Shown: piece after piece, positions 1-10,621 of the stretch
Position numbering within the stretch: position 1 is the first letter of the stretch
How the letters are laid out: the number at the start of each line of letters is the position of its first letter
Origin: Candidatus Woesearchaeota archaeon
GTDB taxonomy: Archaea; Nanobdellota; Nanobdellia; SCGC-AAA011-G17; GW2011-AR20
Length of the DNA stretch: 10,621 bases
Reading direction: 5' to 3'
Assembly: GCA_018302685.1 (NCBI GenBank)
Contig: JAGVZK010000005.1
Location: 1-10,621, forward strand
Program-made: the position numbers and the translations under genes
Notes under the pieces: model-generated
What the model saw: only the letters and a program-made list of their open reading frames with translations
What the model was told of the DNA's origin: nothing
Database searches by the model: none

Positions 1-110
1 CCTTAGGAAAAACTCCAGCAGAAGAGGCAGGATTTGCTATTGACTTAGGAAAGAATAAGTGGAGAAAGTTGATAGAAATAGCCTCTTATTTCAAAAATTA
101 TGCCCCGTAG
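1..110 (+). CDS. 3' end of an unknown plus-strand gene, partial and entering from the left edge
   Basis: Frame 3 is open from the window edge to TAG at 108..110 (…LGKTPAEEAGFAIDLGKNKWRKLIEIASYFKNYAP*). It is convergent with the minus-strand operon. No recognisable motif. Confidence 0.3.
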   Translation, partial: LGKTPAEEAGFAIDLGKNKWRKLIEIASYFKNYAP

Positions 111-207
111 AGTTTACATTACACTAAAACTATTCAATGAGAAAATCATTCAAATGATTTAATTTATCTTTGTTGGTTCTGTCAGAATTGAGAGATAAAT
201 CGTTTTC

Positions 208-216
208 AAAAAAAAA
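208..216 (-). terminator. Oligo-T tract (T9 on the minus strand) just downstream of the last operon gene, a possible intrinsic or archaeal-type terminator
   Basis: The minus strand reads TAA-TTCTTTC-TTTTTTTTT right after the DsbA stop (224..226). It is the only long T-run at the 3' end of the 9-kb gene string. No strong hairpin precedes it. Confidence 0.3.
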
Positions 217-223
217 GAAAGAA

Positions 224-928
224 TTAAAGCTGGGTTTCTATCACCTGCTGAAAGTTAGCGAATGGCTGTGCACCGCTGACAGGCACATTCCCAACAAGGA
301 AATAAGGAGTCCCTCTTCCGCCGGAAGCTGATGCGTCTTTCAAATCATTTTGTATTTCACTAGCATACTTCTGGCTGTCAAAGCATTCATTGAACTGTCC
401 GGTGTTTAATCCAAGATCAACTGCAAACTGTTTCAATAATGATTCGCTCAGAGATGCCTGATTCGTGAATATCATGTTGTGGTATTCCCAGAACATTCCC
501 TGCTCATCCGCGCACTCGGAAGCCAGCGCTGAAGGCATGGCCATGGGATGGAAGCTTAATGGAAAATCCCTGTACACAAACTTCACTTTTCCGGTGTCAA
601 TATACTGCTCCTTTATCTGCTGAAATGCATCCTCGTGAAACCTTCCGCAGTAGGGGCATTGAAAGTCCGAAAACTCAACTATTGTCAGCGGAGCATTCTT
701 ATCTCCTAAAAAGGGATCATCATCAGTGTATTCCTGAGCAGACACTTCAATGATTCCTTCGTTCCCTTGAGCTGTTGGTGCAGTATTTGCATCCGCTACA
801 GCCTCAGTGCTACTGTTTCCAAATCCTCCGGTTGATATTGAAATCACAAGCAGGACAACAAGAACACCGCTTATTATCTGCCACATCGTGGATTTTTTTA
901 TCGTGACTTTTTCCTCTTCTTTTGCCAT
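224..928 (-). CDS. DsbA-family thiol:disulfide oxidoreductase (thioredoxin fold), N-terminally membrane-anchored or secreted
   Basis: 234 aa. It has an N-terminal TM/signal anchor (MWQIISGVLVVLLVISIS) and the active-site box FSDFQCPYCGRFH (CPYC). DsbA/BdbD-like blocks include IVEFSDFQCPYC, VKFVYRDFPL and GTPYFLVG (cis-Pro loop). A strong SD (AAGGAGGT) lies upstream of the ATG at 928. Confidence 0.85.
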   Translation of the reverse strand: MAKEEEKVTIKKSTMWQIISGVLVVLLVISISTGGFGNSSTEAVADANTAPTAQGNEGIIEVSAQEYTDDDPFLGDKNAPLTIVEFSDFQCPYCGRFHEDAFQQIKEQYIDTGKVKFVYRDFPLSFHPMAMPSALASECADEQGMFWEYHNMIFTNQASLSESLLKQFAVDLGLNTGQFNECFDSQKYASEIQNDLKDASASGGRGTPYFLVGNVPVSGAQPFANFQQVIETQL

Positions 929-941
929 GTTATAACCTCCT

Positions 942-1370
942 TTATTTAACTATTAGCCTTCCAGCCATGCTGCTGTGGTCTTCCCCGCAGAATACATTGC
1001 AGTAAAATTCAAACTCCCCTTTCTTGTCCGCTATGAATTTCACATCAACGGTTTCTCCCGGATTTAGATATTCATTAACCCCAAATTCAGATATTGCAAT
1101 CCCATGGGCCACATCAACGCTTTCAACATGAAGGATTACTCTGTCGCCTTCATTCACAGTTATCACTGACGGCTCAAATTCCCACTGCCTTGCAATTATA
1201 TCAAATTCCTTTACACTAACCGGCTCATTGATGTCTTCCATTTCTTGCTTGGAAATGCTGTTTCCTGAAACCTGAGCTTCATAAGAAACGCCCTCAGTAT
1301 TGCCATCGGGAGACGAGCACCCTGTTGTAAGCACTGCCAGCAAAAAAATAACAATAAAGTAGCTTTTCAT
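942..1370 (-). CDS. Stand-alone CuA-type cupredoxin domain protein (CoxII-like soluble domain), probable lipoprotein or secreted
   Basis: 142 aa. The signal peptide has a lipobox-like LTTGC. The motif VAH-x34-C-NVF-C-GED-H-SS-M exactly matches the CuA consensus H-x34-C-x3-C-x3-H-x2-M. SD is GAGGTGAT. No oxidase subunit I is present in the window. Confidence 0.8.
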   Translation of the reverse strand: MKSYFIVIFLLAVLTTGCSSPDGNTEGVSYEAQVSGNSISKQEMEDINEPVSVKEFDIIARQWEFEPSVITVNEGDRVILHVESVDVAHGIAISEFGVNEYLNPGETVDVKFIADKKGEFEFYCNVFCGEDHSSMAGRLIVK

Positions 1371-1379
1371 CCTATCACC

Positions 1380-1472
1380 TCAGCAGCATTCGCAGCCAGC
1401 TCCGCATGAGCAGTCTGACTTCATTTCAGCTTTTCTCTTCCTCTCATCTTTTTCTTTCATCTTGTCCTCCAT
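1380..1472 (-). CDS. Unannotated Cys-rich micro-protein (26-32 aa), a putative metallothionein-like metal-binding peptide
   Basis: My own translation of the minus strand gives MEDKMKEKDERKRKAEMKSDCSCGAGCECC*. The 5 Cys sit in the last 10 residues. An internal ATG at 1460 has a GGAGGA box 5 nt upstream and is the likeliest start (26 aa), and an in-frame ATG also exists at 1478. The ORF fills the copA-cupredoxin gap exactly, and its 3' end (TGAGGTGATAGG) supplies the SD of the next gene. Confidence 0.55.
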   Translation of the reverse strand: MEDKMKEKDERKRKAEMKSDCSCGAGCECC

Positions 1473-1493
1473 TAGCATTATAGAAATACAATT

Positions 1494-3491
1494 TTACTTA
1501 CCTTTGTTTGGTATATAAATTTTTCTAAAGTATTTGTTCAATGACCCCCTTAACAGATTTGCATTCGTGACAACAGTTATGCTTGACAGCGCCATTGCAA
1601 TTTCAGCTATTACAGGATGCAGTAATCCTGCCACAGCCAGCGGAATTGCGACCGTATTGTATGCAAAGGCCCAGAATAGATTCTGCTTTATTTTCTTGAA
1701 TGTCAATTTTGACAGATAGATTGACTCAACAACTCCCATCAAAGATCCTTTTGCAAGTACTATGTCGCCGGCCTCTATTGCGATATCAGTTCCTGTGCCC
1801 ATTGCAATCCCCACATTTGACTGCTTCAATGCAGGAGCGTCATTGATTCCATCACCTACAAAAGCAACCATCCCCTCTTTCTGGAGCTTCATAACAATTT
1901 TCGCCTTGTCTTCGGGAAGGACGTTTGCAACAAAGTCCTTTATTCCAACTTCTCCTGAGATTGCGCGGGCGGTCCTTTCATTGTCTCCTGTAATCATCAC
2001 AGTCTTATATCCATCTTTGTTAAGTCTTTCAACCGCATTTTTGGAGTCGTCCTTGACAGCATCAGCGACCGCGATAAACCCTATCACTTTTCCGTTCTCC
2101 GAGATTATCATCAGCGTTTTCCCCTGATCCTCAAATTTCTCTATGGTTTCTGAGTGGCTCTTTATGCTGATATTCCTTTCGTTCATGAGGGTTCTGTTGC
2201 CTATGACTATGTATTTTTTGCCGATATATCCCTCTACGCCTCTTCCTCTCAGAACTTTGAAATTTTTGACATTTTTGTATTTTTTCATGTTAATGTTTTC
2301 AACTATCGCCTTTGCGATTGGATGTCCGCTAAGCCTTTCAAGGCTTGCAGCAGTTTCCAAGAGATATTCTTTTTTGACATTTTCAGGATGAATATCAGTC
2401 AGTTGGGGCTTTCCTTTTGTGATTGTTCCTGTTTTGTCAAATACGACTGTTTTGACTTCCTTCATTGTCTGTATCGCCTCACCCTTTCTTATTAAAATTC
2501 CATTTTTGGCGCCCATCCCCGAGCCTGCCATCAGCGCTATCGGTGTAGCCAGCCCCAAAGCACATGGGCATGCAATTACCAAAACAGAAATTCCAATGCT
2601 TAATGCCCTGCTTAAATCCTGGCTGAACATCCACCAGTTGAAGAAAACAATGATTGTCAGCATGAGGATTATGGGAACAAAAATTCCCGTAATCTTGTCT
2701 GCTAATTTCTGAATTGGAATTTTTGTCCCCTGGGCTTCCTCAACCAATTTTACTATGTGTGCCAGGAATGTATCTTTTCCTATTTTTACAGCCCTTACAT
2801 ATAAAATCCCATCCTGATTTATTGTGGCTCCGATCACGTTATCCCCTTTCATTTTTTCAGAGGGAATGCTCTCTCCAGTGATCATGCTCTCATCAACAGA
2901 GCTTTCGCCTTTTGTTACAATGCCGTCTGTTGGGATTTTTTCCCCAGGCTTTATCACCATGATATCGCCTATCTTTATTTCAGAAACAGGAATTTTAGTT
3001 TCCTCGTCGTCTTTCAGTACTACCGCGCTCTTTGCCCCTAGCTCAAGCAATTTTTTTATCTCTGAGCTCGCTTTCCCCTTTGCTTTTGCCTCTACATATT
3101 TCCCTGTTATGAATATAGCCATTATCATCGAGGAAATTCCGGAATAATTCTGGGCAATATCGAAAAAACTCAGGAATCCAGTCAGGTATGCAACAATGGT
3201 TCCTAAAGAGATAAGAGAGTCCATGCTGAAGTAAAGGCTATAAAAACCCCTCAGCCCTCCTCTTATAGTTTCAAAACCGAATATAAATATTACCGGAAAT
3301 CCAAGAGCCAGAAGGATTATGTTCATTGACTGCTTAGGGGCAAGATCTATTCCAAGCAGTGCTCCTGAATACATGAATAAAACAATTGGAATCGTGAACA
3401 GCCACGCTCCGACAAGCCTCTTCTTCCAACCCCTTATTTCTTTTTCTTCTAGGGATAATTCACTGTGATCATGTCCGGAATGATTATGCAT
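1494..3491 (-). CDS. copA: Cu(I)/Ag(I)-exporting P1B-1-type ATPase
   Basis: 665 aa. P-type motifs are TGES, DKTGT, MITGDN and GDGINDAP. The P1B-1 metal-site signature is complete: CPC in TM6 ([11 protein letters not shown]), YN-x4-P (YNTVAIP) and M-x2-SS-x5-N ([11 protein letters not shown]). The N-terminus is His-rich ([11 protein letters not shown]) and there is no fused HMA domain. The start overlaps the copZ stop (ATGCATAA). Confidence 0.95.
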
Positions 3492-3702
3492 TTTCTATCG
3501 ATGCCACCTTGTAACCTGCTCTTGAAACTGCTTTTTTAAGATCATCATTGGTTACACTGTCTTCAGCTTCAACGTATCCTTTTCTCATGACGAGGTTGAC
3601 ATTTGCATCCTTGACTCCGGAAACTTTTTTCAGGCTCCTTTCTATGTTGGATGCGCACGATGCACAGTGCATTCCTTCAATCATTAATTTTATTTTTTTC
3701 AT
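3484..3702 (-). CDS. copZ: HMA-domain copper chaperone
   Basis: 72 aa. It has [15 protein letters not shown] (the GMxCxxC metal-binding loop) and a length typical of a ferredoxin-like fold. It is translationally coupled to copA by an 8-nt overlap. Confidence 0.9.
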
Positions 3703-3711
3703 ATTTCCCCC

Positions 3712-3834
3712 CTATTTCTTATTCGGTTTCTGAATTTGTTTTGCCAGGTAGAATATTAACAGCACAAGCGCTATGACCACTAATATCCACATTACAAATC
3801 CAAAAAACCACATCCCATTGTAGTAATTAATCAT
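3712..3834 (-). CDS. Unannotated 40-aa single-TM micro-protein
   Basis: My own translation gives MINYYNGMWFFGFVMWILVVIALVLLIFYLAKQIQKPNKK*. A GGGGGCTGAGAAT box precedes the ATG at 3834. The ORF fills the gap between the cupredoxin-like gene and copZ. It has a clean aromatic/hydrophobic helix and a basic tail. Confidence 0.5.
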   Translation of the reverse strand: MINYYNGMWFFGFVMWILVVIALVLLIFYLAKQIQKPNKK

Positions 3835-3855
3835 ATTCTCAGCCCCCAATAATTT

Positions 3856-4230
3856 TTATTCAACTATTATTGTCCCAGTCCCCATCCCCATTGCGCACGC
3901 AAATCTGAATGTTCCTTTCTTGTCGGGGACAAATTCAACGTAATCCTCAGGCGTTCTTAAATTCTTTGAGACTCCAAAGTCTCTTATCGTAAATGACCTA
4001 TAGCACCCTGTAATGCTGCTGTCCAGCCTTATTCTGACAGGAATTCCTTTTTTTACAGTGATTGTATTTGGATAATAATTGTAATTCCTCATACTCAGTG
4101 TTATTTCCTGTATGATATCATCCTCTTTTGCCCCATCAGGATTTCCTTTTCCATTTCCATTCACAAACACAAACGCTCCGACCGATATAATAATGGCCAC
4201 TATTATCAGCAATATTGTTGTATTTTTCAT
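3856..4230 (-). CDS. Membrane-anchored cupredoxin-like protein with a Cys/Met-substituted metal site, paralog of 942..1370
   Basis: 124 aa with an N-terminal TM. It shares the DKKG-x-F-x-F-x-C block with the CuA cupredoxin (PDKKGTFRFAC versus ADKKGEFEFYC). The ligand pattern is C-x35-C-x-M-x-M (ITGCY…FACAMGMGTG) instead of H…CxxxCxxxHxxM. It has an ATGA-type overlap with the upstream gene. Confidence 0.65.
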   Translation of the reverse strand: MKNTTILLIIVAIIISVGAFVFVNGNGKGNPDGAKEDDIIQEITLSMRNYNYYPNTITVKKGIPVRIRLDSSITGCYRSFTIRDFGVSKNLRTPEDYVEFVPDKKGTFRFACAMGMGTGTIIVE

Positions 4231-4910
4231 CAGAATATTCCCCCTCTTGGTCCAAAGACAATCATCAGCGATGTCAATGAGGTTAATATCAAGCTTGCAA
4301 ATAAAGTGAACACATAGTCCTCCTTTACCATCCTCTCGCTTTCTTTTGTTTCTTTGTAGATCATGTAGTTCAATCCAATTAATATGACGCCTGATATTAT
4401 AAATACAATTACGGACGCTTCTTTCAGATGGTCATTTACCATCATAACAGAGCTCATTGCCCCCATTATTCCCCCCATGAAGCCAGCAGTTATCCCCTCC
4501 ATGAATCCCATAATCCCACAGCAAAGGCCATTGTAAATCCCGAATGTTATTCCAACAATCATCCCAAAAACACTTCCCCAGAACATGCCATTTGCAGCAC
4601 CAATGTAAAATCCCGCTAAAAATCCAGAGATCATTCCAACTGTCATTCCTATCATCATTCCAGACATGCATGCAAATTCCCTGTATGCTCTTACTTGCCT
4701 TATTGATGGCAGCAATATTGCATAGCTCAAAACAGAAAGAAATATCAGCAATCCATATCTAGGCATAAACTCCTCTATATACCGGAATTTTACAAAATAA
4801 AGAAGAGCCAGTAGTCCGAATGATATTAATAAAGAGTAGAGTATAGTTCTTATCAGTTCACCCTCAACCCTATTTCCATTCAACTCCCTTGCAAATAATT
4901 TCAAGCTCAT
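4230..4910 (-). CDS. Polytopic membrane protein with Gly/Met-rich (glycine-zipper-like) helices, unknown function
   Basis: 226 aa with about 6 hydrophobic segments. The central region is MSGMMIGMTVGMISGFLAGFYIGAANGMFWGSVFGMIVGITFGIYNGLCCGIMGFMEGITAGFMGGIMGAMSSVMM, with repeated GxxxG/M spacing and one CC pair. I recognise no family. Confidence 0.6.
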   Translation of the reverse strand: MSLKLFARELNGNRVEGELIRTILYSLLISFGLLALLYFVKFRYIEEFMPRYGLLIFLSVLSYAILLPSIRQVRAYREFACMSGMMIGMTVGMISGFLAGFYIGAANGMFWGSVFGMIVGITFGIYNGLCCGIMGFMEGITAGFMGGIMGAMSSVMMVNDHLKEASVIVFIISGVILIGLNYMIYKETKESERMVKEDYVFTLFASLILTSLTSLMIVFGPRGGIF

Positions 4911-4917
4911 ATTTTAC

Positions 4918-5214
4918 CTACCCCTTTATTCTATTGTAAATCATTGCAAATAAATATCCTGCGATAAGGGATAATGCAATTATTTCAATTAATCCTAAAA
5001 TCGTGTCTATAAATGGTAAAGACTCTTCTGCTATCCTGCTTATATCTATCCCATGAAATAAAAACCCAAATGCCTTCACCATCCCTGCTGGAAAGATCGC
5101 AATTAAGATAGCGCAGAGAATATATATGACCCCAAATGTTCCTGCCAAACTGAAGGCAAATTTTTTTTCATTTAACTTATTCCCCACTTTTGTCATCCCC
5201 CTTATTTTTACCAT
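4918..5214 (-). CDS. Small two-TM membrane protein that resembles the DUF5676 family
   Basis: 98 aa or less. Alternative starts are ATG 5196 and GTG 5187, which has GGGGGA 8 nt upstream. It has two TM helices, and the C-terminal …GYLFAMIYNRIKG resembles the …WLYN end I recall for DUF5676. The family call is from memory only. Confidence 0.55.
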   Translation of the reverse strand: MVKIRGMTKVGNKLNEKKFAFSLAGTFGVIYILCAILIAIFPAGMVKAFGFLFHGIDISRIAEESLPFIDTILGLIEIIALSLIAGYLFAMIYNRIKG

Positions 5215-5392
5215 GACCTCGAAAGTGATGCTTCATCACTATAATATGCAAAACAATCATTAATATAACTATCGCCATGATTGTAAATTTGCTGGAAATG
5301 CCTAAAAATGATATTGCCGATACTAGAACAAATGGAATTAAGCACGCCAAAGTCATCATTATTATGTGAACATGCTCTTTTTTATGCGGCAT
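5177..5392 (-). CDS. Small His-rich two-TM membrane protein
   Basis: 71 aa with MPHKKEHVH at the N-terminus and MKHHFRGHGKNKGDD at the C-terminus. HIIMMTLACLIPFVL resembles the H-x-MM-x-(C/A)C-x-x-P small proteins often found near heavy-metal ATPases. AAGGGGGA lies 9 nt upstream. It overlaps both neighbours. Confidence 0.55.
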   Translation of the reverse strand: MPHKKEHVHIIMMTLACLIPFVLVSAISFLGISSKFTIMAIVILMIVLHIIVMKHHFRGHGKNKGDDKSGE

Positions 5393-5909
5393 CTTGATTA
5401 ATCCCCCTTGGTTTGCATAAACTATTGATTGACATTCCAGTAAGGTAGATTGAAATAAGCAATATTAAAATTCCAAAAAGCTGAAGCTCAACCCCTTTAA
5501 ATGGAAAATACATGAGAGTAAATGGAAGTCCTATCAACCCAAACAAAAATGCTCCGCAGGTAGGGCATCCAACCCCAAATGCACTGATCCCGGATCCAAT
5601 AAATCCAAGAAACCCTTTCCCAGTAATTTTATTATGCAATCTAAATTTAAATAAGATCATAGAGAGCAATATTCCAGATAATGCAGAGGTAGCCAAGATG
5701 GAAGCCACACTAAAGGTTATAAAAGTAGGCCCGGACATCATTATGGATGTCCATAAACTATTATGCGCAACTTTGGCAACTAAAAAATAATATAATACTG
5801 CAAATATCAATATGCCTGAGACTAAACTGATTATTTTGTATCTTCTCCCGGTTAGAGCCAGGCCAATGCCTATGTTAAATTCCCTGAGATTTTCCTTTAT
5901 TGCAGTCAT
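5382..5909 (-). CDS. Polytopic membrane protein with an intramembrane CPTC motif, unknown family
   Basis: 175 aa with 4-5 TM segments. The pair sits in a Gly-rich helix start (GSGISAFGVGCPTCGAFLFGLIGLP). Its architecture loosely parallels the 145-aa protein at 6121..6558. Confidence 0.6.
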   Translation of the reverse strand: MTAIKENLREFNIGIGLALTGRRYKIISLVSGILIFAVLYYFLVAKVAHNSLWTSIMMSGPTFITFSVASILATSALSGILLSMILFKFRLHNKITGKGFLGFIGSGISAFGVGCPTCGAFLFGLIGLPFTLMYFPFKGVELQLFGILILLISIYLTGMSINSLCKPRGINQDAA

Positions 5910-5918
5910 TTTATTAAA

Positions 5919-6128
5919 TTATTCCAAGCATTCTTTGTAAATATTGGGATGATGACTCATATGCTCTCTCCATGATTCTTCAGTGTATCCTGACTCTGGT
6001 GAGCATTTGTCTTCCAAACCTTTTCCAGAGTCTTTCCATGCCTGAATTATTCCAGGAAAGAATGTTAAAAGCAAAAGCCCTACTATCAGCAGGCAGGCAA
6101 TGACATACAAAATTATTCTTTTATCCAT
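5919..6128 (-). CDS. Small TM-anchored protein with a Cys/His/Met tail
   Basis: 69 aa with an N-terminal TM (IILYVIACLLIVGLLLLTFF). The tail is …EDKCSPESGYTEESWREHMSHHPNIYKECLE, with two Cys flanking an HMSHH box. AGGAGGA lies 7 nt upstream. There is an 8-nt overlap with the upstream gene. Confidence 0.6.
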   Translation of the reverse strand: MDKRIILYVIACLLIVGLLLLTFFPGIIQAWKDSGKGLEDKCSPESGYTEESWREHMSHHPNIYKECLE

Positions 6129-6558
6129 TTTTCATTCCTCCTTTCATTTTTCTTTTATGCCTTAGCATGATCATTATTCCAATTATGTTGGACAATATTC
6201 CTACTCCTAAAAACCAGGGCTGATATCTTGCCAGAAAAGTCGCCAGTACAGAAGCCCCTGCAAGAGGAATTATTTGAAGCAAAAAATGAGAGCAACAAGC
6301 AATCATGCTCCCTCCAGATATTGCACTCGTCCCAGCAACAGTTCCTGTAAGCTGTGCGGTATGTTTAATCGAAAAATATAATCCTATTTGTATTCCAAAT
6401 CCTGCGGCAAGGGGAAAAATCAGGTACCATAGGCCCCTCAGATTGAGAAGAGCAAATTCAATACCCCTAAAAATGCTTACAACGCCGAGGTAAAAAACAA
6501 GCAACCCAACCCCTGCCATCAATCCATACAGTGTTGCATTGCTTCTATTATTCTTCAT
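6121..6558 (-). CDS. Four-TM membrane protein with an intramembrane vicinal Cys pair (ACCSH), MerT-like in logic only
   Basis: 145 aa. GGSMIACCSHFLLQIIPLAG places CC-x-H at the start of a helix followed by Pro, as in CC-x-x-P metal-uptake helices. Homology was not established. Confidence 0.6.
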   Translation of the reverse strand: MKNNRSNATLYGLMAGVGLLVFYLGVVSIFRGIEFALLNLRGLWYLIFPLAAGFGIQIGLYFSIKHTAQLTGTVAGTSAISGGSMIACCSHFLLQIIPLAGASVLATFLARYQPWFLGVGILSNIIGIMIMLRHKRKMKGGMKNG

Positions 6559-6560
6559 TT

Positions 6561-7034
6561 TTATTCATTGCAACATTCAAGCAGTTTTTTGATGGAGGAG
6601 AAAATTCCTTTTTTCTCGCTGCCTTTTATTTCTACATTTTTTGAGGAGGAATTTAATTCCCAGAACAATCCATACAGTTCAGCGGAATCATGGTACATCC
6701 CCTTTGCCTCTTCTTCCTTTCCTTCATGAAATAATCTGTTAGCTGTCTCGTACAACCTCATGCTCGAGGCAAGAAAATGCTTGCTCATGCACCATTTCTC
6801 GCTTTCATCGTCTTTTTTTACAATTAGCAACATTAGATTTTTTCTCAACTCCCTGACTACGTCCAAAATTCTAAGAAATTTCTCATCTTTGGTTTTTGCA
6901 TAGCTGAAAAAGCAGTGCTCTTCAAGGCTTACAAGGTTCATAAGGCCAATGCTAAGATCTTCCCATACAGAAATATCTAATCCATTCTTTTTCTTTATTT
7001 CATCTATTTTTTTTATGAAGTTTTCCGATTTCAT
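6561..7034 (-). CDS. Soluble, probably cytoplasmic alpha-helical protein of unknown function ending in CC
   Basis: 157 aa with no hydrophobic segment. It is charged and helical, with EEHCFF, EKWCMSKH and C-terminal LLECCNE. Apart from CopZ and the Cys-rich micro-proteins at 1380..1472 and 8212..8322, it is the only clearly soluble non-secreted product in the operon. Confidence 0.6.
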   Translation of the reverse strand: MKSENFIKKIDEIKKKNGLDISVWEDLSIGLMNLVSLEEHCFFSYAKTKDEKFLRILDVVRELRKNLMLLIVKKDDESEKWCMSKHFLASSMRLYETANRLFHEGKEEEAKGMYHDSAELYGLFWELNSSSKNVEIKGSEKKGIFSSIKKLLECCNE

Positions 7035-7035
7035 T

Positions 7036-7554
7036 TTAAATAAACTGTATTATTAATGATGCAGCTATTAAAATCAAAAATGTTAATATAATCCCTTGAA
7101 ACGGTATTCTTATGGTTGTTTTTTCCTTTATTTTCCTGTTTAGCAAGGGTGGAATAAAAACTATCAAGCCTCCAAGAAAACTGCTTAGCAATGATAAATC
7201 AATTACATATGTCTTGTTGAGCAAAGTTCCATAACCCCCTGTTAAATTAACACCAAATCCAGCTACACTGGAAAAAATTGGCAGTAAAGGAATTATTGTT
7301 GCTAGGAAAACAATTGTTATTATCAAGGTTTTCTGAAATGGAATATATCTCTTCTTCACAATTTTTGCAAACCACATTCCCATTGACATTGCAAAGGCGC
7401 CAATTAACAGCCCTATAACGATCCTGCTTACTCCAAGATAAACCCCTCCGGCTGCAGCAACTCCGGCGGTTACTGTGCATAATGGGCAGTGGGCATCAGC
7501 ATATCTGGAGAAAGCAAGCGATGCAATGAAAAATAAAGAAATTAATTTTTTCAT
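7036..7554 (-). CDS. Polytopic membrane protein with an HCPLC motif at the predicted mature N-terminus
   Basis: 172 aa. The signal-like N-terminus MKKLISLFFIASLAFSRYADA is followed immediately by HCPLCT and then 4-5 TM helices. It has an ATGA overlap with the DUF411 gene. Confidence 0.6.
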   Translation of the reverse strand: MKKLISLFFIASLAFSRYADAHCPLCTVTAGVAAAGGVYLGVSRIVIGLLIGAFAMSMGMWFAKIVKKRYIPFQKTLIITIVFLATIIPLLPIFSSVAGFGVNLTGGYGTLLNKTYVIDLSLLSSFLGGLIVFIPPLLNRKIKEKTTIRIPFQGIILTFLILIAASLIIQFI

Positions 7555-8033
7555 ATTCTCATGAATTCATCATAGCTTCCATCATTGTTAACCTGATAAA
7601 CAATAAAGTCGCTTTTTTTTGTTCCAGGCATCCCAGGGCTCCCTGAAGGCATTCCAGGCATTGCAATCCCCTTTATGTCAGGCTTTTCCATCATTAATCT
7701 CTCTACAGCCTCCAATGGGATATGGCCCTCAATAAAATAATCTCCTATGATTGTTGTATGGCAACTTTCCAGTTCCAGAGGAATTTCGTATTCCTGTTTT
7801 ATTGAATCAATGCTCTCCATGCTGATTATTTCAGTTTCGGAATTTCCCTTACTCCTAAAATAGCTTGAATAGACTCCGCAGCATCCGCAGCTCCCTGATT
7901 TGTAAAGTTTTATTTCTCCCTGAAAATTCCTGACATTTTCAAAACTGCTTGCCTTGTCTGCATTAATGGCAAAAATTCCTATGACAACAGTCGATAAGAT
8001 TATTACGGCCCATATCATTGATTTTTTCTTCAT
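7551..8033 (-). CDS. copG: DUF411 / CopG-family copper-binding protein, membrane-anchored or secreted
   Basis: 160 aa with an N-terminal TM. The diagnostic DUF411 blocks are CGCCGVY, SCHTTIIGDYFIEGHIPLEAVERL and KGIAMPGMPSGSPGM. Confidence 0.85.
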   Translation of the reverse strand: MKKKSMIWAVIILSTVVIGIFAINADKASSFENVRNFQGEIKLYKSGSCGCCGVYSSYFRSKGNSETEIISMESIDSIKQEYEIPLELESCHTTIIGDYFIEGHIPLEAVERLMMEKPDIKGIAMPGMPSGSPGMPGTKKSDFIVYQVNNDGSYDEFMRI

Positions 8034-8210
8034 TTAGCACCCTCCAACCATTCCACCATATGATACTGCACTTTGCGCCGCAGAGCCCGCTGCCTGCACT
8101 GTTTCAACACCTACTCCGGCTTTAAAGCTCAGGAATAATGCGGCAATAAAAAGCACTCCAATAGCTATCCATAGCGTAGTTTTTCTGTTCATAATGTTTA
8201 TATTATTCAT
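8034..8210 (-). CDS. Unannotated 58-aa TM-anchored protein ending in -GGMVGGC, paralog of 8324..8566
   Basis: My own translation gives MNNINIMNRKTTLWIAIGVLFIAALFLSFKAGVGVETVQAAGSAAQSAVSYGGMVGGC*. AAGGAGGT lies 5 nt upstream of ATG 8210, and an alternative ATG is at 8192. The TAA stop abuts the copG ATG. It aligns with the 80-aa protein at the TM segment, the AGVxG box and the tail. Confidence 0.65.
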   Translation of the reverse strand: MNNINIMNRKTTLWIAIGVLFIAALFLSFKAGVGVETVQAAGSAAQSAVSYGGMVGGC

Positions 8211-8211
8211 T

Positions 8212-8322
8212 TTATACCTCCTTGATTTTCTTATTGGACTTTTTTCTCACAAATCGAAATAAACTCTTGTTTTCGAGATCCTTACAACATTCTTCCTCAT
8301 CTTTCGTTTTGCAACAATTCAT
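8212..8322 (-). CDS. 36-aa Cys-pair micro-protein (CC-x8-CC) with a basic tail
   Basis: MNCCKTKDEEECCKDLENKSLFRFVRKKSNKKIKEV*. The supplied 64-aa ORF (8212..8406) overlaps the 80-aa gene. The internal ATG at 8322 lies 1 nt after that gene's stop with GGAGGG upstream. The same TAAAATGAAT junction recurs at the next gene boundary. Confidence 0.5.
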   Translation of the reverse strand: MNCCKTKDEEECCKDLENKSLFRFVRKKSNKKIKEV

Positions 8323-8323
8323 T

Positions 8324-8566
8324 TTAACACCCTCCCACCATTCCATTGGAACTGCTTCGAGCTGCTCCGCTGCCGGCCTTAGCTGGAATTGTTCCATGCA
8401 TTTCATAGTTCATTATTTCATTTTCTGTCCAGCCGGAAGTGTCTATTTTATCTTCGTTGGGCAATTGTGCAACCACATTTCCGGTTACACCTGCCTGAAA
8501 TACAAAAAATGAAACAACTAAAAATAGCATTCCAATAATGCTCCATAAAATTGTTCGTTCTTCCAT
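8324..8566 (-). CDS. 80-aa TM-anchored protein ending in -NGMVGGC
   Basis: MEERTILWSIIGMLFLVVSFFVFQAGVTGN…AKAGSGAARSSSNGMVGGC*. Its ATG abuts the TAG of the upstream gene, with GGGGGG 7 nt upstream. It is a paralog of the 58-aa protein with a ~25-aa insert (…DTSGWTENEIMNYEMHGTIP). Confidence 0.7.
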   Translation of the reverse strand: MEERTILWSIIGMLFLVVSFFVFQAGVTGNVVAQLPNEDKIDTSGWTENEIMNYEMHGTIPAKAGSGAARSSSNGMVGGC

Positions 8567-9235
8567 CTAACAGCCCCCCACCATTTGTCCGTCAGAAGTT
8601 TGTCCTTGTTCAATGCCCCTGTAAAGGTTAGAAGCTAAGTTGATGTAATTTGTGAAATCAACACCATTTGCTTTAAGTATATCCGCCTTCTGCTCATGTA
8701 TTCCAGGGAAGAACAGAACTTTCCATTTCCCTAATTCGGACAGTATTTCTTCATTAGACATTTCCGGATGATTTATCAGCAGATACTTTGCAACACCCCT
8801 CATTGCATAACTATGTGCGCATCCGCACGCCCTCTCTCCGTTTGAGAAAATTATCGCCTTTGCACCGCAGCAGTATTCACACGATATTGAGCTGCCAATC
8901 CCAATGTATCTTGCCATTTGTTCCTGATTCAGATCCATATCTTCATATTGTGATAATTTCCTTATTGTAGCATCTGCAAGTCCGGGATTACCCGCAGAAA
9001 TATCATCGTACCTTACCCCTATTTCTACCCCATAAACTGCCGGCATTCCTTTAGGGATTATCTCTGATGCAGAAACAATCCCAACACCAGTAGCGATTCC
9101 ATTTTCAGAATAAATTCTTCCAACATTGAACACGATTACCAGTGCCAAAATAGCCATTATACCTAGCTGCACATAAAATTCCGTGTTTTCATTTTTTGCC
9201 TTGCTTGAGTTTTTCATGATAATCTTCCAGAACAA
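8567..9235 (-). CDS. First operon gene: TM-anchored extracytoplasmic Cys-rich domain protein ending in -DGQMVGGC
   Basis: 222 aa, or 216 aa from ATG 9217. It has an N-terminal TM (LGIMAILALVIVFNV). The Cys cluster is SCEYCCGAKAIIFSNGERACGCAHSYAMRG (C-x2-CC … C-x-C-x-H), reminiscent of PCYCGC-type motif proteins by memory only. The C-terminus is QMVGGC*. Confidence 0.7.
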   Translation of the reverse strand: MFWKIIMKNSSKAKNENTEFYVQLGIMAILALVIVFNVGRIYSENGIATGVGIVSASEIIPKGMPAVYGVEIGVRYDDISAGNPGLADATIRKLSQYEDMDLNQEQMARYIGIGSSISCEYCCGAKAIIFSNGERACGCAHSYAMRGVAKYLLINHPEMSNEEILSELGKWKVLFFPGIHEQKADILKANGVDFTNYINLASNLYRGIEQGQTSDGQMVGGC

Positions 9236-9307
9236 GAATTATATAACTCCTTTTGTGAAACTAGTTTCAACAGCAAGATTTTTAAAGATCATATTAAAAA
9301 AAGATGT
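9236..9307. promoter_or_regulatory. Divergent promoter/operator region containing a perfect 14-bp palindrome TGAAACTAGTTTCA (9256..9269)
   Basis: This is the only sizeable non-coding gap flanking the operon. The A/T-rich TATA-like box TTTTTAAAGA / TTTAAAAATC (about 9279..9288) reads on both strands. It lies ~25 nt upstream of the regulator ATG at 9308, consistent with a leaderless archaeal-type mRNA. The palindrome sits between that box and the operon start. Confidence 0.45.
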
Positions 9308-9796
9308 ATGGAAAATAAATACGTTGGATACTTATTAATGGGGATTTCTATACTGGTTATAGTTATCATATTATTGTTTAACTCCACACTGAAAGAAATT
9401 GTGAAAGAGAGCTGTGGGGAAGCTCACGGTTTAACATGCCCAATGAATGAAACTGTGAATGAACAGACATACCTTGCATTGGGGGTTGTTGGCCTACTGA
9501 TAATAGTGAGCCTTGTTTTGATATTCTCAAAGCCCCAGAAAGAAATTATTTTCAAGACAAGAACAATAGAGAAAAAAGCCAAAAAGAAAAAGATTGATAC
9601 AAGCGGATTAAAGCCAGAAGAAAAGATGGTTTTGGAGATTATCCAAAAGGATAAGGCGGTTTTTCAGGCTGACCTAATAGAGAAGACGGAGTTTGGGAAG
9701 GCAAAGATGACAAGAATAATTGACAGGCTTGAGGGAAAGGAATTCGTTGAAAGGAAGAGAAGAGGATTGACAAATGTTGTTGTTATGAAGGATTAA
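9308..9796 (+). CDS. Membrane-tethered winged-helix (MarR/TrmB-like) transcriptional regulator with a Cys/His/Met extracytoplasmic loop
   Basis: 162 aa. TM1 is YLLMGISILVIVIILLF, the loop is …KESCGEAHGLTCPMNE… and TM2 is LALGVVGLLIIVSLVLIF. After a Lys-rich linker comes a C-terminal wHTH: EEKMVLEIIQKDKAVFQADLIEKTEFGKAKMTRIIDRLEGKEFVERKRRGLTNVVVMK. It is divergent from the operon. Confidence 0.7.
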   Translation: MENKYVGYLLMGISILVIVIILLFNSTLKEIVKESCGEAHGLTCPMNETVNEQTYLALGVVGLLIIVSLVLIFSKPQKEIIFKTRTIEKKAKKKKIDTSGLKPEEKMVLEIIQKDKAVFQADLIEKTEFGKAKMTRIIDRLEGKEFVERKRRGLTNVVVMKD

Positions 9797-9831
9797 ATGT
9801 TTAAACCACAAAGTTATCCTAATAAGAAATT

Positions 9832-10325
9832 TCAAATTGAGAATGCGTGAAATAAATAATTTGTTTTTATGGCAAAGTTGTCACGGACTTCTTTCTTAGT
9901 AAGGCTGTCTAATTCAAGGAATCTTGATCTATAGTGCAGAAGCATAGATTCCACGCTAATTACTCGTTCTCTATCGAGATGCTTGTCTTCCCTCATTTTT
10001 AATTTCCTAGCTTTTTCAAGATAGTGATTAGTTTCTAAAAATCTTTTTATTGTTTTGTATGACTTTCTTATCTTTTCTTTGTATTTTTTTCCAAATCTCT
10101 TATACTTATCTTTGAAAAATTACTCCCTAAATTGCACATATCTTTTGTGATAACTCTTCCACATTTTCTTACAGATATCATTAAAGAGTAATATTTTTTG
10201 TCTCCTATCTTTTTTACATGGATATATTCCATACATAATGAATTATGCAATAATATGCAAATATCCCTCTTACAATTTAATTTTGAAAAGTAGTGGGATA
10301 AACCTGAAGAAAAATTGATGTTCAT
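9832..10325 (-). pseudogene. Frameshifted and probably truncated gene remnant in a very AT-rich stretch (possibly Fic-like or mobile-element-associated, uncertain)
   Basis: The 85-aa ORF (10068..10325) contains IHVKKIGDKKYYSLMISVRKCGRVITKDMCNLG. It stops at 10068, but a second frame is open from ~10115 to TGA 9832..9834. That frame reads …KYKEKIRKSYKTIKRFLETNHYLEKARKLKMREDKHLDRERVISVESMLLHYRSRFLELDSLTKKEVRDNFAIKTNYLFHAFSI*. The two frames overlap across an A7 homopolymer (forward T7 at 10085..10091). Confidence 0.35.
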
Positions 10326-10381
10326 TTAGTATCTTTTTAATTAAGCGGGGGACCTATTTTGTTTTTAAGTTTTCTTGATTT

Positions 10382-10621
<240 letters not shown>

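Follow-up and report, generated by a model that had tools for sequence, protein, structure and literature searches.

Three adjacent genes share one C-terminal ending

The DNA analyzed here is a 10,621-nucleotide (nt) stretch from a Candidatus Woesearchaeota archaeon (assembly GCA_018302685.1, contig JAGVZK010000005.1, positions 1 to 10,621; hereafter the window), and our subject is a run of three consecutive genes in it whose products, one large protein and two small ones of 80 and 58 amino acids (aa), all end in the pentapeptide MVGGC (hereafter the tail). The endings read ...DGQMVGGC, ...SNGMVGGC and ...YGGMVGGC, respectively, each closed by its stop codon, and GIEQGQTSDGQMVGGC is an example of the C-terminal peptide of such tail proteins. 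One N-terminal hydrophobic helix is found in each of the three. The shared ending had been pointed out in a preliminary description of the window; it was confirmed here and is kept in hundreds of relatives. The positions of the genes and of the features discussed below are collected in Table 1.

The large protein more likely starts at the ATG at 9217. This start is used by the database protein P0002, which is 100% identical, and by P0003 and P0004 (216 aa), and the TTG at 9235 (222 aa) is the start of another database entry, P0001. The ATG is favored by a TATA-like box at about 9240-9247, since the TTG would then fall within the promoter.

Table 1. Genes and sequence features of the window (TM, transmembrane; ORF, open reading frame)
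Feature	Positions	Strand	Remarks
DsbA-like thioredoxin	224-928	-	Pfam
CuA-type cupredoxin	942-1370	-	membrane-anchored; C-x3-C-G-x2-H-x2-M; also matches COX2 Pfam model
CopA P1B-ATPase	1494-3491	-	CPC, YN(x4)P and M(x2)SS, which mark Cu(I) pumps; read from translation
CopZ/HMA	3484-3702	-	Pfam
CupA-like cupredoxin	3856-4230	-	membrane-anchored; ligand set CYRSF...FACAMGMG
TM protein with CC	4230-4910	-	
DUF5676	4918-5214	-	
TM protein with GCPTCG	5382-5909	-	
TM protein with ACCSHF	6121-6558	-	
157-aa protein ending CCNE	6561-7034	-	
TM protein with HCPLC	7036-7554	-	
DUF411 (CopG-type), SCGCCG motif	7551-8033	-	Pfam PF04214, E=2.7e-24; ATG abuts stop of 58-aa gene
58-aa small tail protein	8034-8210	-	TM helix, Ala/Ser-rich linker, MVGGC; tail codons 8037-8051
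36-aa ORF between the two small genes	8212-8322	-	uncalled; begins MNCCKTKDEEECCKDL; full MNCCKTKDEEECCKDLENKSLFRFVRKKSNKKIKEV; Cys-Cys, Lys-rich cytoplasmic segment
80-aa small tail protein	8324-8566	-	TM helix, Met/His motif, Ser/Gly linker, MVGGC; tail codons 8327-8341
Motif W-T-E-N-E-I-M-N-Y-E-M-H-G-T-I-P of 80-aa protein	8384-8431	-	at least 90% conserved as DT.GWT.NE.MNYEMHGTIP
Large tail protein	8567-9217	-	216 aa, ATG at 9217; alternative TTG at 9235 (8567-9235), 222 aa
Tail codons of large protein	8570-8584	-	stop 8567-8569
Cys cluster of large protein	8813-8881	-	C113-E-Y-C116-C117-G ... C131-G-C133-A-H135
Palindrome TGAAAC-TA-GTTTCA (TGAAACTAGTTTCA)	9256-9269		perfect, 14 bp; 90-nt divergent promoter region; 0.06 expected by chance in window
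MarR/DUF7343 winged-helix regulator	9308-9796	+	divergent; Pfam; two N-terminal TM helices, Cys loop SCGEAHGLTCP between

The tail is conserved in archaea and bacteria

At least 1727 homologues of the large protein were found in one search, all of them named "hypothetical" and without a Pfam domain. Orthologous clusters in related genomes, from which the motif might have been absent, retain it: among the 120 closest homologues, 117 have MVGGC as their ending, and identity among the closest relatives within the DPANN archaea (Diapherotrites, Parvarchaeota, Aenigmarchaeota, Nanoarchaeota, Nanohaloarchaeota) is 65-85%. When a homologue from the bacterial candidate phyla radiation (CPR) was used as query, 860 further proteins were obtained, likewise all named "hypothetical," and among the 120 listed, 104 end in MVGGC and 14 in QVGGC (118/120). 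The small proteins behave alike, with MVGGC at the end of 119 of the 120 listed among 292 homologues of the 80-aa protein and of 52 of the 54 members of the cluster of the 58-aa protein (cluster 2).

A full hidden Markov model search of 1.84 billion cluster representatives yielded 317 clusters of the large family at 50% identity. Among the best 150 of these, 113 end in x-x-G-G-C, most other full-length clusters end in G-x-C (MVGSC, MVGAC, MVGDC, WVGDC, FVGSC and others), and the endings that have no Cys belong to fragments or read-throughs. A genome scan gave 76 loci from Woese-, Pace-, Nano-, Micr-, Aenigm- and Diapherotrites archaea and from CPR/Patescibacteria bacteria. In these and the window (77 loci) MVGGC ends 158 stop-to-stop ORFs, the next commonest ending occurring 10 times. 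The sharing of this ending is far beyond chance.

The terminal Cys is kept while the other positions drift (MVGSC, MVGDC, WVGDC), and the constraint, as it appears in the alignments, decreases in the order terminal Cys-COOH, G at -3, G at -2 and V at -4, M (or Q) at -5. In all 158 cases and in about 100 others nothing separates the tail Cys from its stop codon, and the linker that precedes the tail is of low complexity and variable length. As the preliminary description had supposed, the motif appears not to have been described before: it is absent from Pfam and NCBIfam, and "MVGGC" and "CEYCC" (the latter from the large protein, see below) gave no relevant match in the searchable literature.

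Selection acts on the peptide

From V to the stop, the codons of the three tails in the window are GTG GGG GGC TGT TAG, GTG GGA GGG TGT TAA and GTT GGA GGG TGC TAA. The tails thus differ at synonymous sites, so their identity lies at the peptide level. Among the 158 tails, V and each of the two G are written with all four of their codons and Cys with either of its own, every one of the three stops occurs, and this full range, together with a Gly codon usage like that of the background, argues for selection on the peptide and not on an embedded ribosome-binding site.

Such a site deserves consideration nonetheless, as the next ATG lies within 0-1 nt of each tail stop in the window and two of the tails hold GGAGGGTG 7-8 nt upstream of this ATG, so that the tail might be a by-product of an embedded Shine-Dalgarno sequence GGAGG that couples translation to the following gene. 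Against this, GGAGG is present in only 85 of the 158 tails, and in 52% of coupled versus 41% of uncoupled tails (p=0.08), the tail Gly codons match the background (GGA at 47% and 36% at the two positions versus 45%), T-rich non-coding DNA follows many tails, and M, V and C are conserved as well. Codon usage and the comparison of coupled with uncoupled tails rule out the Shine-Dalgarno sequence as the cause of tail conservation, and the explanation is barely credible, although a secondary use of the tail DNA as ribosome-binding site in this window is possible.

The tail belongs to one gene module

Public metagenome DNA was scanned for ATGGTNGGNGGNTGYTAA, which gave 120 loci. About 50 are chance matches in ORFs shorter than 40 aa and about 70 are genuine, combining the tail with a TM helix and a low-complexity linker. 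Each genuine tail adjoins a homologue of the large protein, save where the contig is cut. Since the genuine tails of this metagenome scan belong to this one cluster, the tail is probably not a general sorting tag. The large gene is followed by no small tail gene in 6 loci, by one in 58 and by two in 24 (82 of 88 loci have at least one). The divergent loci L197, L200 and L201 have no small partner gene, and in L198 the next ORF is cut by the contig end.

These results bear on the idea, raised in the preliminary description, that the tail is a tag for processing or attachment. Some enzyme would then recognize the tail and alter or cut off the terminal Cys, in the course of C-terminal processing, lipidation or covalent attachment, and enzyme recognition tags are typically as invariant as this terminal pentapeptide with its free carboxylate. 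A candidate enzyme could be sought in the CPR loci, where an M56/M48-type membrane peptidase and a BlaI-type repressor lie upstream, in place of a MarR-type regulator. However, the M56 gene is absent from the archaeal loci, and its pairing with a BlaI-type repressor suggests that it is probably regulatory. Furthermore, the tail does not extend beyond a single gene cluster and two to four families of small proteins, with no diverse cargo; no sortase-, exosortase-, archaeosortase- or prenyltransferase-like gene recurs as a neighbor; no TM helix or basic cluster follows the motif; and the proteins are already anchored at their N-termini. A general tag is disfavored by the metagenome tails, and a modification signal of any kind is quite unlikely.

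A second, divergent copy of the module lies 6 kb from the first in a Pacearchaeota locus (L004, 15378-17297). It encodes a BlaI-type repressor, a membrane protein, a 402-aa homologue of the large protein that has no tail, and a 71-aa protein with a CPR-style tail (...SVPSNLDNLPSMVGGC). The succession of a tail-less large paralogue and a tailed small protein indicates that domain and arm can be separate chains, and the copy suggests transfer between CPR bacteria and DPANN archaea.

Tails are matched within loci

Where the tail deviates from MVGGC, large and small proteins of the same locus tend to deviate together. Both carry QVGGC in L044 and in L068, MAGGC in L061, QSGGC in L076 and QVGSC in L199, and the sole mixed locus is L056, in which the large protein ends in MVGGC and the small one in QVGGC. 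Deviant tails are therefore concordant in 5 of 6 loci (Fisher's exact test, p ~1e-6 for L044, L061, L068 and L076; 135 pairs). The synonymous identity of the tails is 1.83 of 4 sites within a locus versus 1.52 between GC-matched loci (p ~1e-4), and most large-small pairs differ at two or more of the 4 synonymous sites. The slight excess within loci points to some gene conversion, but selection keeps most pairs alike; as the sole cause of identical tails, gene conversion was rejected, the synonymous identity being raised only modestly. From the sequences we infer that the matched tails point to a common partner site.

Matching would also arise if one tail bound to another, by way of a disulfide or a short beta-like pairing, and so assembled a hetero-oligomer of large and small proteins, the tail being structural and not a carrier. 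Besides the matched deviant tails, the near-constant set of one large and one or two small genes and the modest concerted evolution of the tail DNA are in line with such an assembly. It is rather improbable, however, given that the large protein stands alone, with its tail, in six loci, that a five-residue pairing element on long disordered linkers would be a weak device, and that the metal-type motifs of the small proteins (below) would go unexplained.

The large protein defines a new family

The large protein consists of an N-terminal TM helix, a helical domain, a flexible linker and MVGGC-COOH. The Cys-rich domain noted in the preliminary description (CEYCC...CGCAH) is present, and its five Cys and one His, with the spacing C-x2-CC-G-x12-C-x-C, are invariant in alignments of 77 and 115 sequences that include DPANN and CPR members. 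Invariant residues (216-aa numbering) are G57, P59, Y62, G63, I111, C113, E114, C116, C117, G127, C131, G132, C133, A134, H135, S136, R140, E161, W165, K166, P171, K177 and the terminal V-G-G-C.

Confident AlphaFold2 models of the window protein and of a CPR homologue (predicted local distance difference test, pLDDT, 85 and 87) show the N-terminal TM helix, the helical domain and two Cys "knuckles," the Cys region being made up of loops and beta-bridge "knuckles." Foldseek comparison of both models with the PDB gave no fold neighbor (best E>1, template modeling score <0.2), and the large protein has no Pfam, NCBIfam or PDB sequence-profile match. For the three tail proteins together, Pfam and NCBIfam at E<=0.1 returned no family except a sub-threshold, irrelevant match to DUF350. 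Two Cys-rich families were considered by name and rejected: PCYCGC (PF13798) for want of a Pfam match and with a probability of 1% in hhalign against the PCYCGC proteins of neighboring loci, and the CCG domain of the HdrB/DsrK type (PF02754) because there is no Pfam match at E<=0.1 and the protein has a single N-terminal TM anchor and no twin-arginine motif. The large protein and its tail module constitute a new family, characterized by the Cys5-His domain, the ending [M/Q]VGGC-COOH and the gene order large then small, all of which are present in the window.

The small proteins and their topology

The two small proteins of the window are related, as had been proposed, with 48% identity over a 27-residue TM segment (BLASTP, E=2e-7) and a common tail. 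Four types of small protein occur among the loci. The first, that of the 80-aa protein, has a TM helix, DT.GWT.NE.MNYEMHGTIP, a linker and the tail; the second has (E)EMMARMHPDQ between the helix and the linker; the third is the "plain" type of the 58-aa protein, in which an Ala/Ser linker joins the helix to the tail; and the fourth, from CPR, bears an extended tail, (A)PLPSxLxNLPxMVGGC, that is also found on CPR large proteins. A box of the form AGVxG or ATGVG described after the helix is only weakly conserved, with only F23 and T28-G29 at 70% in the 80-aa family.

In at least 24 loci the plain small protein has, as an in-frame N-terminal extension, the CC..CC segment that the window encodes in its 36-aa ORF. 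In 9 loci the segment has an ORF of its own immediately before the small gene; these include the closest relatives of the window and thus indicate a conserved gene fission rather than a sequencing error. In CPR the N-terminus of the small protein is His-rich and contains CC.

The positive-inside rule, taken as K+R before versus after the TM helix, is met by 87% of the large and 79% of the small members. This charge bias indicates an N-in/C-out orientation, with the domain, the linker and the tail outside the cytoplasm, in agreement with the topology first predicted. The tail is thus a conserved extracytoplasmic feature of the module in both DPANN archaea and CPR bacteria, and some small tail proteins bear, by their predicted topology, metal-type motifs on both sides of the membrane.

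The module lies in a copper and thiol-redox island

The window genes from 224 to 9217 form one co-directional island on the (-) strand, and the same families recur around the large gene elsewhere. The copper context that had been noted is borne out, the surrounding genes being copper genes by Pfam. No terminator-like site was found in 7400-9900 by a promoter and terminator scan that uses a bacterial model, the host being archaeal, and no oxidase gene is present in the window despite the cupredoxin that matches COX2.

Marker genes were counted in loci of at least 9 kb (45 archaeal, 18 CPR). Any copper marker (CopA, CopZ, cupredoxin or DUF411) is present in 37 of the 45 archaeal loci, and DUF411 stands at position +2 or +3 in 29 archaeal loci. 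A hand-off specifically to the DUF411 protein, as suggested at first for the gene that follows, cannot be the general mechanism because DUF411 is encoded in 25 of the 45 archaeal loci but in none of the 18 CPR loci, which have the same tails.

The divergent MarR/DUF7343 gene is present in 44 archaeal loci, at position -1 to the large gene in 24, and its product, judged by its helices and Cys loop, looks like a one-component membrane sensor-regulator. The palindrome between the two genes is a probable operator; 35 loci contain its 12-bp core, GAAACTAGTTTC, in most cases at a distance of 30-100 nt upstream from the large gene, and a TATA-like box (TTATATAA) lies next to the palindrome. On the far side of the regulator gene, outside the island, a truncated ORF at the edge of the window (10382-10606, - strand) contains the serine-protease motif GNSGGPL and resembles a trypsin-like peptidase of the HtrA/DegP type.

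Several other proteins of the islands carry Cys or Met motifs. The four TM proteins in Table 1 are multi-pass, contain AHCPLC (after a signal-like helix), ACCSHF, GCPTCG and NGLCCGIMG, have no Pfam or NCBIfam match and are found again around the large gene in both CPR and DPANN loci; we consider them candidate conduits for thiophilic metal or electrons. The 157-aa protein, found also in L058, L062, L070 and others, has no TM helix or Pfam match and ends in (L/V)(L/V/N/D)CCxE-COOH, with the variants CCNE, CCKE, CCDE and CCGE in 20 loci, 8 of them bacterial. Another conserved terminal Cys motif, ECCKKW, ends a 146-aa membrane protein in related loci. Small Met-rich proteins (e.g., ...MNSMMNTRNMMNMGMMGGMH) occur in related islands (L004 10760-11047, L201 635-898, L075 10780-11349 and similar), a further hint of Cu(I)-type Met chemistry.

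Interpretation

The reading that we favor, tentatively, is that the tail is an extracytoplasmic Cys-thiolate arm for Cu(I) handling, by analogy with the C-terminal arms of SoxY and DsrC. The flexible arm would present the terminal Cys thiolate, and the co-encoded proteins would bear identical arms because all dock into one site, for which the Cys-rich pocket of the large protein is the most probable candidate, unless the arms pair through a bridging Cu(I). The module would take Cu(I) outside the membrane and pass it on, within an island for copper tolerance or trafficking, and the co-encoded CcdA/thioredoxin would keep the arm Cys reduced. This reading is based on the peptide-level selection, the matched tails, the copper neighbors, the MNYEMHG and MMARMHP motifs, and the N-termini with CC..CC or with a His-rich CC segment. 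Cu(I) capture or hand-off had been proposed in the preliminary description; the idea gains support from the Met/His motifs of the small proteins and from the His/Cys-rich cytoplasmic N-termini, and it is the best-fitting one and plausible.

Several observations weigh against it. Position -5 is Q in about 10% of the members and rarely W, F or I, which indicates that a Met thioether ligand is dispensable and modifies the initial proposal, in which Met accompanies the terminal Cys thiol. At copper sites, Met is known to be exchanged for Gln or Trp (the axial ligand of stellacyanin; position 44 of CusF), which offers a lead but not a test. No column of the domain tracks the M-to-Q switch in sister pairs (about 30 Q lineages), apart from generally variable columns. 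The tail is weakly placed by AlphaFold2, the pLDDT of the last block being 62-67 in one model and 58-70 in the other. The number of Cys in the large domain is odd (five), and the tail Cys could simply be a disulfide partner. Finally, a copper marker is present in only 8 of the 18 CPR loci, and a thiol-redox marker (CcdA/DsbD_TM, membrane thioredoxin or DsbA) in 18 of the 18 CPR and 28 of the 45 archaeal loci, so that, for the CPR loci, a role in redox chemistry alone is at least as good a fit.

In its metal-free form, that role would be a thiol-disulfide relay: the tail Cys would bond with the odd fifth Cys of the cluster and be cycled by DsbA and CcdA/thioredoxin, which would make it either a switch that responds to redox state or a carrier of electrons outside the membrane. 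Both the redox genes counted above and the combination of five invariant domain Cys with one tail Cys favor a relay, and the concordance of tails fits competition for a single Cys partner. Yet copper genes dominate the archaeal loci, the Met/His motifs and the His-rich CC N-termini are of metal type and needless for a relay, and the strict V-G-G before the Cys is left without a reason. We regard such a relay as unlikely.

If the Cu(I) arm is taken further, the module may represent an unrecognized extracytoplasmic carrier-arm system across CPR and DPANN, in which tethered disordered proteins offer an identical Cys-COOH arm to a catalytic or cluster-binding pocket in the new Cys5-His fold, and the cargo, Cu(I) or another thiophile, is shuttled between membrane, surface and possibly the host cell of the episymbiont; this extension is possible but doubtful.

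The family is cross-domain and well conserved, with an invariant five-residue ending and no solved fold relative, and it provides a handle on the proteins without assigned function that abound in the tiny genomes of CPR and DPANN. The tail itself yields a precise and easily tested hypothesis that concerns a single terminal cysteine. Should Cu(I) be carried, this would be a new type of copper chaperone, with a disordered tether in place of a folded domain, and it would explain surface copper handling in organisms that have no outer membrane or classical periplasm. A signal for redox or modification, should the tail be one, would be new among C-terminal signals. Either way, annotation gains a family definition, conserved partners, and a probable regulator and operator for hundreds of "hypothetical proteins."

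Comparison with known systems

Short conserved C-terminal motifs on several proteins of one genome are also known from the tripartite sorting signals (PGF-CTERM/archaeosortase, PEP-CTERM/exosortase, GlyGly-CTERM/rhombosortase and LPXTG/sortase). These differ in that a TM helix and a basic tail come after the motif, which serves many unrelated cargoes and has a dedicated sortase. Membership was rejected because nothing follows the tail Cys, the carriers lie in one cluster in the metagenome scan, and no recurrent neighbor is sortase-like. A prenylation box of the CaaX or Rab type (Cys at -4, or an end in CC or CxC) was likewise rejected, as the tail has a single last Cys, is extracytoplasmic and occurs in prokaryotic hosts.

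In the Cys-Cys tail of MerA and the GCUG tail of thioredoxin reductase, a terminal thiol or selenol on a flexible C-terminal stretch picks up a thiophilic metal or a substrate and brings it to a buried Cys site of the same enzyme. These are, however, cytoplasmic flavoenzymes whose tail works within the dimer, and domains for flavin or NAD(P)H are lacking in the tail proteins.

Among copper proteins, DUF411/CopG holds a Cu4 cluster by its CxCC motif and acts in anaerobic copper resistance (PMC7558416). It resembles the large protein as an extracytoplasmic Cys-cluster protein, and CEYCCG is similar to CxCC, but its fold is thioredoxin-like and there is no sequence or profile similarity between the two. 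CupA and CopZ hold Cu(I) by Cys and Met ligands, hand it to a partner and are encoded beside copA (PMC7558416). Like the small tail proteins, CupA is a small protein tethered by an N-terminal TM helix. CupA and CopZ bind their copper on the cytoplasmic side, within folded domains of cupredoxin or ferredoxin-like type, whereas the tail proteins are mostly disordered and outward-facing, with a terminal Cys instead of MxCxxC or C...CxMxM. Membership in an HMA or CupA type was rejected, the tail proteins having no HMA or cupredoxin match and such domains being encoded by separate genes of the window (Table 1).

The closest likenesses are with sulfur carriers. In DsrC, the Cys close to the end of a flexible C-terminal arm enters a partner enzyme and bears the substrate (PMC3397948). 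The active region of DsrC/TusE is thus also a flexible C-terminal Cys arm, but DsrC is a cytoplasmic sulfur carrier of another fold with a strictly conserved penultimate Cys. The tail proteins were not assigned to DsrC/TusE (TIGR03342), since they have no NCBIfam or Pfam match, their Cys is terminal and the tail is outside by topology; dsr genes, including those of the partners DsrAB and DsrK, are absent from the tail loci. In SoxY, the C-terminal GGCGG-COOH is a swinging arm that is presented to the active sites of partners (PMC6067878, citing Sauve 2007). Both SoxY and the tail proteins are extracytoplasmic and carry a Gly-flanked Cys at the C-terminus on a flexible arm. Membership in SoxY (PF13501-type) was rejected, as there is no Ig-like profile match, the AlphaFold2 model is helical and the tail is [M/Q]VGGC-COOH instead of GGCGG; soxZ, soxAX and soxB are not among the recurrent neighbor families of the 77 loci.

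The tail could accordingly be thought of as a carrier arm for sulfane sulfur (persulfide), a functional analogue of SoxY and DsrC outside the cell. Apart from the resemblance to the two arms (PMC6067878, PMC3397948), the hosts are anaerobic groundwater organisms and a few loci contain a rhodanese-like gene. However, Sox, Dsr, SQR and Hdr genes do not recur as neighbors, the recurring neighbors are copper genes, and CPR genomes are reported to have no sulfur metabolism (PMC8672522), so that a sulfur carrier is very unlikely. The Cu(I) arm that we favor would retain the mechanism and change the cargo: SoxY has an Ig-like fold, a SoxZ partner, Tat export and a sulfur cargo, and the tail proteins have the Cys as last residue, a new helical fold, an N-terminal TM anchor and a copper and thiol-redox context. 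The arm would thus work like those of SoxY and DsrC, with a thiophilic metal and not sulfur as its cargo.

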